From IMG/VR virus record IMGVR_UViG_2700989161_000006: a DNA stretch of 24,501 nucleotides, one strand, 5' to 3'. The notes beneath the pieces are model-generated. The model worked only from the letters and a program-made list of their open reading frames with translations, had not been told where the DNA came from and did not search any database. The first letter of the stretch is position 1. Every line of letters starts with the position of its first letter. A program made the translations under genes and the position numbers. Below, piece by piece: positions 6,950 through 8,255 of the stretch. The DNA comes from a virus (taxonomy: Duplodnaviria; Heunggongvirae; Uroviricota; Caudoviricetes).

Positions 6950-7243
6950 TCAGTCATTACTGATAGCGCCATAGCGTGAGCGGTAATTACGCAGGCGCGG
7001 GTCAATTTCAGGGAAGTGGGTATATGTGGCTTTGCGGAATGGTCGGATTGATGTCTGGTAAATTCGCTCGCGTTCTTCTTTCTCTGCAAGCCATATACAG
7101 TGGCGAAATTCCTTTTCCTCTTTCGTTTCCTGCGGTAGCGACATTATCCGATCGTAGTTTTTTCTGAATTTATCCAGCACCTCCGATACGGAATTGCCGG
7201 AACAGCGGCGCGGGGCATCCGCACCATACAGAGGCGCTGGCAT
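6950..7243 (-). CDS. Hypothetical 97-aa protein in the position of P22 abc2 (anti-RecBCD)
   Basis: ATG at 7243 with AAGGA RBS; immediately downstream of ssb/erf in the leftward operon. Abc2 assignment is positional inference only. Confidence 0.45.
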
Positions 7244-7266
7244 AATGGAATCCTTATGTTGCTACT

Positions 7267-7650
7267 TTAGAAGGGAATTGAATCGTCGTATTCAGGATGA
7301 TTTTGATGATTGCTACTTTGCTGCTGTTGGCTGTTTCCTGAGGTTGCAAATCCAATCTTTGCATTCAGTAATTCAAGAGTGATTGATTGACCATTTTGCC
7401 CCTGATAAACATCAACCCTGATGTTTTCTCCGGTAATTTCTACAATGCCACCTTCAACAAGAACACTACGGTAGTAATCCGCTTGCGCTCCCGGCTTGGC
7501 AAATACAACGGCGCTGTAGTTTGTCCATTCTTTCTTTTTTGTCTGGCGATCGTAATACTGAACGCCAGCACGGATGTTGAATCCGATATTTTCCCCGGCC
7601 TGAAACTCTCTTGCGGGCTTGTTTAGTCTTACAGTAATCGAATGTGCCAT
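7267..7650 (-). CDS. ssb: Phage single-stranded DNA-binding protein (SSB-like)
   Basis: ATG at 7650 overlaps erf stop (TAATG); Gln/Ser-rich linker and acidic C-terminal tail ending DDSIPF, like the SSB tail DDDIPF. Confidence 0.65.
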   Translation of the reverse strand: MAHSITVRLNKPAREFQAGENIGFNIRAGVQYYDRQTKKKEWTNYSAVVFAKPGAQADYYRSVLVEGGIVEITGENIRVDVYQGQNGQSITLELLNAKIGFATSGNSQQQQSSNHQNHPEYDDSIPF

Positions 7651-8255
7651 TAAGCAGCCGCTCCTTCTAATTCGTCTCGTCTGATGTTGTAAACGTCCTG
7701 CGCTTTGTGCTGCTCCGGTGTGCCTTCGAGCATCTTCCACGCTTTGGCGAACGCCTGTTTAAGCTCTTCCACGGTGTTTTTCTGCAATGCTGCGTCAGTG
7801 AATGCTTTTAGAACCTGTTCAGGTGTAGGTGATGGTTTTGATTGCTTTGCTGCTGCGTTCTGCTGATGTTTATGCTCGTCGGTATCTGCATCTTTCGCAT
7901 CATCAATGCCGAACAAACCATTGAGGCAATACTTGCGTGCATAAGAGCTTGTAGCTCCCGTAACTTGTGCAGAATCCATTCCTTTCTTGCTTTCTTCCTC
8001 TCGTGCAAGAGCGGTTGCTGTATGACTGTTTTCGCCATCAGTAATAGTTGCCGTTGCTTTCACGTAATACCGATCACCAATCAACACAACTTCATCGCTG
8101 ATTGATAAAAACAGGCCATTCAGTAACGGCTTAACGCCTTCAAGAATGTCTTCGCAGCTTCTGTATTTATATTTACCGAATGAGTTGTACTGATTCTTTG
8201 GCGCGTTCAGATTCTCCTGAATGGCTGCCAGCCTTGCATAAAATTCTTTGCTCAT
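7650..8255 (-). CDS. erf: Erf-family single-strand annealing recombinase
   Basis: ORF track 7650..8285 uses a TTG; first ATG at 8255 gives MSKEFYARLAAIQENLNAPKNQYNSFGKYKYRS..., which matches my memory of P22 Erf. Confidence 0.7.
   Translation of the reverse strand: MSKEFYARLAAIQENLNAPKNQYNSFGKYKYRSCEDILEGVKPLLNGLFLSISDEVVLIGDRYYVKATATITDGENSHTATALAREEESKKGMDSAQVTGATSSYARKYCLNGLFGIDDAKDADTDEHKHQQNAAAKQSKPSPTPEQVLKAFTDAALQKNTVEELKQAFAKAWKMLEGTPEQHKAQDVYNIRRDELEGAAA

Follow-up and report, generated by a model that had tools for sequence, protein, structure and literature searches.

The erf-SSB-abc2 module described here is an already known one, the ordinary, catalogued Rec module of HK97/HK022-type lambdoid phages, and we consider it probable that it acts as such: Abc2 would alter RecBCD, a small single-stranded DNA-binding protein (SSB-1b) would coat ssDNA, and the tail of this SSB would hand the DNA to the annealing protein Erf. 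The module lies in a stretch of 24,501 nucleotides (the window), where positions 6950-8255 hold three minus-strand genes, tightly packed head to tail:

7650..8255, minus strand: erf, 201 aa, with its ATG at 8255..8253 and its stop codon TAA at 7652..7650
7267..7650, minus strand: ssb-1b (HK97 gp40 type), 127 aa, with its ATG at 7650..7648
6950..7243, minus strand: abc2, 97 aa

Read on the minus strand, all three genes have the coordinates given in a first-pass annotation of this DNA, and the coupling that it described between erf and an SSB-like gene can be read directly from the sequence, where the erf stop and the ssb-1b start overlap as TAATG with one shared A. This overlap is consistent with translational coupling, which would fix the ratio of the two proteins. 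A 23-nt spacer containing an AAGGA ribosome-binding site separates ssb-1b from abc2. The 1306-bp block recurs at 95-99% identity in hundreds of phage records and E. coli genomes; this conservation, together with a protein family match for each product, argues that the three ORFs are real genes rather than chance ones. At a coverage of at least 80% the block is present in 556 of 5,426 complete E. coli genomes (~10%), and the discovery value of so common and well catalogued a module is small.

The first-pass annotation had placed the 97-aa gene in the position of abc2, and comparison with known families takes it beyond a positional analogue: its product is, judged by sequence, a true Abc2 orthologue and hence a putative modifier of RecBCD. 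The protein matches the Pfam family PF11043 (Anti-RecBCD_p2; E=5.8e-63, 209.6 bits, cutoff 25) over its full length, with residues 1-97 on profile positions 1-97 of 97, and also matches PHROG 656 (E=1.4e-54). Compared with P22 Abc2 in the RecBCD-Abc2 cryo-EM structures (PDB 8b1t/8b1u; E=2.7e-57), 88 of 97 residues (~91%) are identical. Residues 3-66 are the part of P22 Abc2 that was modelled on RecC, and Pro68 sits in the active site of PpiB (PMC9836394); the 97-aa protein differs from the Abc2 of 8b1t by three substitutions within residues 3-66, at positions 10, 32 and 65, and retains Pro68. Its presumed effect on RecBCD follows from this identity to the P22 protein.

The 201-aa protein likewise belongs, by homology, to the Erf family of single-strand annealing proteins, for which formation of a ring oligomer and annealing activity would be expected. 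It matches Pfam PF04404 (E=2.1e-44, 151.6 bits, cutoff 25) and PHROG 155 (E=1.6e-57); its identity to P22 Erf is 75% over the whole protein, 92% in the N-terminal 128 aa and 49% in the C-terminal 73 aa.

The 127-aa product of the middle gene is a small phage OB-fold SSB of the gp40 type, an assignment that draws on its modelled structure and from which ssDNA binding is predicted. It is 100% identical to the corresponding proteins of HK022, mEp213 and PhiR12_2 and 95% identical to HK97 gp40. Sequence-only routes that could link it to SSB (Pfam, NCBIfam, phmmer and a PDB profile search) all stayed under threshold: no Pfam family was matched at E<=0.1, the score against TIGR00621 was 16.4 bits, below the cutoff of 53.95, and the best profile match in the PDB, a Streptomyces SSB, had E=0.23. 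A clear match was obtained with PHROG 44, 'single strand DNA binding protein' (E=1.8e-28), and hhalign aligned the protein with canonical SSBs at 84% probability over 54 columns, with W42 and F50 falling on their Trp and Phe, which we take to be the ssDNA-stacking W54 and F60 of E. coli SSB. In a family alignment of 28 diverse homologues F50 is invariant and W42 is kept in at least 90% of sequences. Reciprocal HMM matches with SSB include the shared tail and lend weak support.

The tail itself is distinctive. The first-pass annotation had noted an acidic C-terminus, and the last residues are indeed EYDDSIPF; a short Q-rich linker is followed by YDDSIPF, which resembles the DDDIPF of E. coli SSB. 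At least 90% of the 28 homologues retain P126 and F127, and the terminal D-x-I-P-F persists, while the linker is free to vary in length (~20 to over 100 aa). The AlphaFold2 model, for which the same 28 homologues were used, has pLDDT>90 over residues 1-105, which form an OB-fold beta-barrel plus one helix in the order strand-strand-strand-helix-strand, and pLDDT<50 over residues 107-127, which are predicted to be disordered. In a Foldseek search of the PDB all 49 matches at E<=1e-3 (E from 4e-5) are bacterial or mitochondrial SSB or PriB; the top matches are bacterial SSB and PriB with moderate TM-scores of 0.4-0.56, and identity to canonical SSBs in the structural alignments is at most ~18%. 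The named structural matches in BFVD are phage SSBs. Since curated SSB models fall below threshold and the TM-scores are of this order, homology to SSB rests on the fold, PHROG clustering and hhalign.

An OB-fold protein with such scores could in principle be something other than an SSB, either a PriB-like adaptor or an anti-defence decoy that resembles SSB. PriB does appear among the PDB matches (ranks 27, 31, 32, 35 and 49), and the failure of curated SSB HMMs and the low structural-alignment identity would be in keeping with such a protein. We nonetheless regard this reading as very improbable, because the best matches in both structure libraries are SSBs, the protein matches PHROG 44, W42 and F50 align with the stacking aromatics of E. 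coli SSB, and a linker with an IPF tail is diagnostic of SSB and missing from PriB.

The assignment as a gp40-type SSB also agrees with a survey published in 2025 (Genome Res 35:1767, PMC12315714), which covered 325 lambdoid phages and gave HK97 gp40 the name 'SSB-1b' because of the fold predicted by AlphaFold 3; according to the same survey, the Rec-module SSBs of lambdoid phages are without experimental study (PMC12315714). The first-pass annotation had read the middle gene as SSB-like rather than of the abc1 type, and PHROG 44 and the fold bear this out. We also considered a diverged Abc1: BLASTP against P22 Abc1 gave no alignment at E<=100, which argues that the 127-aa gene is not a diverged abc1. 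With Abc2 similarity and a predicted OB fold both found, the earlier reading of the module stands. The practical value of the analysis is one of annotation, in that the middle gene, missed by Pfam and NCBIfam, can safely be named a gp40-type (SSB-1b) phage SSB. RefSeq labels it 'hypothetical protein' in E. coli genomes.

Together these assignments suggest how the module would probably work. By homology to P22, Abc2 would bind RecC, and RecBCD would then ignore Chi and no longer load RecA while still unwinding and resecting DNA; the action of P22 Abc2 on RecBCD has been described, and phages that carry Abc2 have been proposed to co-opt RecBCD as a nuclease (PMC9836394). The altered enzyme would supply 3' single strands to a phage that lacks an exonuclease of its own. 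No nuclease gene was found in the Rec module among the ORF list, Pfam and PHROG matches, which fits this proposal. SSB-1b would coat the ssDNA through its OB domain, its ...DDSIPF tail would recruit Erf or hand the DNA over to it through a putative contact with the Erf C-terminal region, and Erf would anneal complementary strands, leading to recombination-dependent replication and repair. The tail step is extrapolated from HK620 Sak4/SSB and from SSB-tail results with lambda Beta (paired with E. coli SSB) and RecT: the HK620 gene named 'abc1' by its position encodes an SSB that cannot stimulate Sak4 without its last six residues (PMC5928155), and the last seven residues of SSB set compatibility with RecT and Beta (bioRxiv 10.1101/2020.04.14.041095).

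How general the pairing of Erf with an SSB may be was addressed by a scan with the Erf N-terminal domain across one genome per prokaryotic species, which returned 51 loci in several phyla; at this level the C-terminal regions of Erf are too divergent for C-terminus classes. Downstream DNA of at least 1.5 kb was available for 38 of them, and in 22 of these 38 a same-strand SSB gene with an [ILV]PF end lies no more than 3 kb away; in 11 cases this gene abuts the erf stop, and in the other 11 its distance from erf is 200-2200 bp. As erf followed by ssb is thus common across phyla, the erf-abc1 order of P22 looks like the exception.

The same scan bears on whether SSB-1b instead serves mainly replication or host takeover, by coating phage ssDNA and by recruiting, or competing for, host SSB partners such as PriA, RecQ, RecJ/ExoI and Pol III chi, with its place beside erf reflecting incidental packing. 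Such a role would account for the YDDSIPF tail, a near-match of the E. coli SSB DDDIPF that binds many host proteins (cited in PMC5928155), and for the half of the erf loci with a downstream SSB in which the two genes do not abut; homologues in Vibrio phages (50% identity) are also annotated simply as OB-fold/SSB proteins. We consider it unlikely. The ssb-1b gene overlaps the erf stop inside the Rec module rather than sitting in the O/P replication module at 12-14.4 kb, apart from which the erf-ssb-abc2 genes lie, and it has been swapped along with the 3' end of erf. Pairs in which ssb abuts erf turn up again in unrelated phyla, and stimulation of annealases by their cognate SSBs is documented (PMC5928155; bioRxiv 10.1101/2020.04.14.041095). 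We therefore favour the reading in which SSB-1b works with Erf.

Comparison with known systems places the module precisely. HK97, HK022 and HK633 share its order (erf - gp40 - abc2 - DUF2737), its spacing and its erf/ssb overlap, with DNA that is 93-97% identical; the differences from HK97, HK022, HK633 and HK75 are point substitutions and mosaic flanks and nothing substantial, the neighbours changing upstream of 8515 and downstream of ~6200-6650 relative to HK97-type phages. A combination of anti-RecBCD protein, SSB and annealase without a nuclease is the 'HK75' functional type of the 2025 survey, which counts 27 phages in it (PMC12315714). The suggestion that an SSB-like gene in this place marks a variant arrangement therefore holds relative to P22 only, the arrangement being the published and very common HK97/HK022 order.

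In P22 the order is arf - erf - abc1 - abc2 - orf56. The two modules are alike in the Erf N-domain (92%), Abc2 (~91%) and orf56 (77%), and P22 likewise has its genes in the PL operon and no phage exonuclease. They differ in that P22 carries abc1 (94 aa) where the window has the SSB, with no detectable similarity between the two, and the ORFs in the arf position have at most a 7-residue motif in common. P22 Erf functions without a phage SSB, and a phage SSB is therefore not obligatory for Erf.

Two further known systems follow the same plan with other components. HK620 (hkaM - sak4 - ssbHK620 - abc2) has the same order and logic, an annealase followed by an SSB with a host-like tail and then Abc2; its annealase is Sak4, which is RecA-like and ATP-dependent, where that of the window is Erf (PMC5928155). 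The SSB tail is NDYPPF in HK620 and DDSIPF in the window, and the HK620 'SSB-2', unlike SSB-1b with its bacterial SSB fold, is classed as non-homologous to bacterial SSB (PMC12315714). In modules of the ES18/Sf6 type (loci L090, L109 and L160) an Erf with an N-domain 88-91% identical to that of the window is followed by an SSB that ends in ...IPF and then by an Abc2-like gene, but the SSB is a canonical bacterial-type SSB-1, easily recognised by sequence, and the Abc2 is far more divergent. Some of these modules (L109) have an HNH nuclease gene between erf and ssb.

The pattern of divergence from P22 suggests where the exchange took place. DNA similarity to P22 covers 6789-7246 (the DUF2737 gene and abc2, 85%) and 7795-8255 (the 5' part of erf, 79%), and is absent from about erf codon 153 (7795) to just upstream of abc2. 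Seven enterobacterial Erfs are 85-97% identical in their N-terminal 128 residues, while at least three classes, 31-79% identical, can be told apart in their last ~75 residues, and the Erf of locus L158 joins a P22-like N-domain (97%) to a window-like C-terminus (79%). This mixing of classes points to recombination joints inside erf at the domain boundary, with the C-terminus travelling with the downstream gene. SSB-1b comes next after a window-type Erf C-terminus in 78 of the 81 distinct IMG/VR stretches, most of which are near-identical modules; Abc1 occurs in one of 80 classified IMG/VR loci, L085, which also has the sole P22-type Erf C-terminus. The association between Erf C-terminus and SSB is real, but because it comes largely from closely related modules it represents few independent events.

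One possible, though doubtful, explanation is that the last ~70 residues of Erf and the next gene form a single cassette in which the Erf C-terminus docks the SSB tail and in which, in P22, Abc1 replaces the SSB. The 2025 survey considers it likely that a shuffling of partner interaction domains is the explanation, without analysing it (PMC12315714). In L109 a window-type Erf C-terminus is paired with a canonical SSB-1 ending in ...NIPF, so that any specificity of the Erf C-terminus would have to reside in the shared IPF tail. If the cassette model were true, SSB-1b would be an Erf-dedicated loader, and its tail, by mimicking that of the host, would also give it access to the host SSB interactome. 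The relation between the SSB-1b tail and the Erf C-terminus bears on the host specificity of SSAP/SSB pairs in recombineering, and also on the role of P22 Abc1.

Three small ORFs flank the module:

6775..6939, minus strand: DUF2737 gene, 54 aa, P22 orf56 homologue (Pfam PF10930, E=3.7e-32)
8266..8436, minus strand: 56-aa ORF between the arf-position ORF and erf (PHROG 1723, E=8e-36)
8357..8515, minus strand: acidic 52-aa ORF in the arf position upstream of erf (PHROG 2123, E=1.6e-40)

The DUF2737 gene is a conserved neighbour downstream of abc2, and its product is 77% identical to P22 orf56; its start, outside the span of the three genes, is corrected here from 6942 to 6939. The 52-aa ORF has in common with P22 Arf an N-terminal W/F-SDEEFI motif of 7 residues (E=0.05) and nothing further; a stronger, though still weak, link runs through an intermediate ORF in L109, which is 50% identical to the 52-aa ORF over 22 aa and 44% identical to P22 Arf over 50 aa, and we tentatively suggest that the 52-aa ORF may encode an Arf-like accessory factor. 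The 56-aa ORF overlaps it in another frame. This ORF is 75% identical to the one in the same position in L090, is annotated in HK97 and HK633, and yielded no detectable similarity in comparison with P22 Arf.

The window as a whole holds a lambdoid prophage at a tRNA-Thr(CGT) gene (2727-2802), beside ProB-like and ProA-like host genes, with the following integrase gene:

3977..2817, minus strand: integrase

The Rec module is part of the early-left (PL) operon and is transcribed leftward with it; on the minus strand this operon starts in the repressor/PL region near 10.5 kb and includes genes for N and for a Nun-like protein. Downstream of the N gene, four terminator-like hairpins separate PL from the Rec module, a placement that fits N-dependent delayed-early expression of the module. 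Only 24.5 kb of the element are visible, and prophage decay does exist, as in an interrupted erf (L077) and a truncated locus (L068), so that the module might be a decaying, inactive remnant in a defective prophage. We regard this as the least probable of the alternatives: the three ORFs are intact and of full length against their family models, they are 95-100% identical to those of the viable phages HK022, HK97, HK633 and mEp213, and the int, repressor, N, O/P-type replication, Q and terminase genes around the Rec module are all intact.

Two minor observations concern the surroundings of the module. The sole Chi site of the window lies in host DNA, which fits an anti-RecBCD phage and is otherwise uninformative. 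The tandem of N and Nun genes looked unusual, and is identical in phages mEpX1 and mEp235.

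Across the compared loci, which include five enterobacterial ones (L158, L090, L160, L109 and L004), identity among the N-terminal domains of Erf is 85-97%, but at least three classes can be told apart in the last ~75 amino acids. The part of the gene concerned is:

7650-7870, variable 3' part of erf

Erf is thus a mosaic of two parts, with a recombination joint at the domain boundary. The C-termini of all SSB-associated Erf proteins share an E[IL]EG..A ending, as against NELKQVA in P22. The module also occurs in variant forms: an insertion of ~1.1 kb interrupts erf at one locus (L077), an HNH-endonuclease gene lies between erf and a canonical ssb at another (L109), and two loci (L052 and L061) carry SSB-1b as in the window, but with a partner Abc2 that is only ~60% identical. 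In a scan of genome contigs (L163-L204), the conservation of the Erf N-terminal domain is striking: prophages of Firmicutes, Bacteroidota and Neisseria encode versions 51-72% identical to that of this E. coli prophage. Matches occur also in two MAGs assigned to archaea by binning, Methanobrevibacter (L198) and Ca. Methanarcanum (L187), although this assignment could reflect binning errors.

Upstream of erf lie two small reading frames that overlap each other in different frames:

8266-8515, minus strand, 52-aa and 56-aa ORFs

Both carry the PHROGs label 'recombinase', the basis for which is not evident. The 52-aa ORF and P22 Arf have an SDEEFI motif in common at the N-terminus.

A further mosaic fusion, in the nin/ea region, is a 298-aa protein whose additional C-terminal half matches a separate PHROG (3205):

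5403-6299, minus strand, Ead/Ea22-like protein, 298 aa (PF13935, residues 2-147)

The host/prophage junction is marked by two features:

2727-2802, tRNA-Thr(CGT), prophage integration site
3977..2817, minus strand, integrase gene

Host genes encoding ProB-like (amino-acid kinase and PUA) and ProA-like (aldehyde dehydrogenase family) proteins directly precede the tRNA gene (157-3977 for the whole region), and GC content falls from ~0.55 to ~0.45 on crossing the junction. The sole Chi octamer in the window (GCTGGTGG, 261-268) lies inside the host proB-like gene; a search of both strands found none in the 21.7 kb of prophage DNA (2800-24501). This agrees with a published finding that Chi sites are scarce in those lambdoid phages that have an anti-RecBCD gene (PMC12315714).

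In the early region, the gene for an antiterminator stands in tandem with one for an exclusion terminator factor:

9611-10287, minus strand, N gene (PHROG 271) and Nun-like gene (PHROG 5632)

The N gene product, matched by PHROG 271, contains an arginine-rich motif of the phage-21 type, GTAKSRYKARRAELIAERR. Directly 3' of N is the Nun-like transcription-termination gene (PHROG 5632, E=5e-71), followed by a terminator-like hairpin at 9612-9595. The tandem seems unusual at first sight, but phages mEpX1 and mEp235 have this pair too, at 99% identity.

Further along lies a second antiterminator:

17081-17599, Q-like antiterminator gene

Just downstream of it are two phage-borne tRNAs, tRNA-Asn(GTT) and tRNA-Thr(TGT), at 17663-17818.
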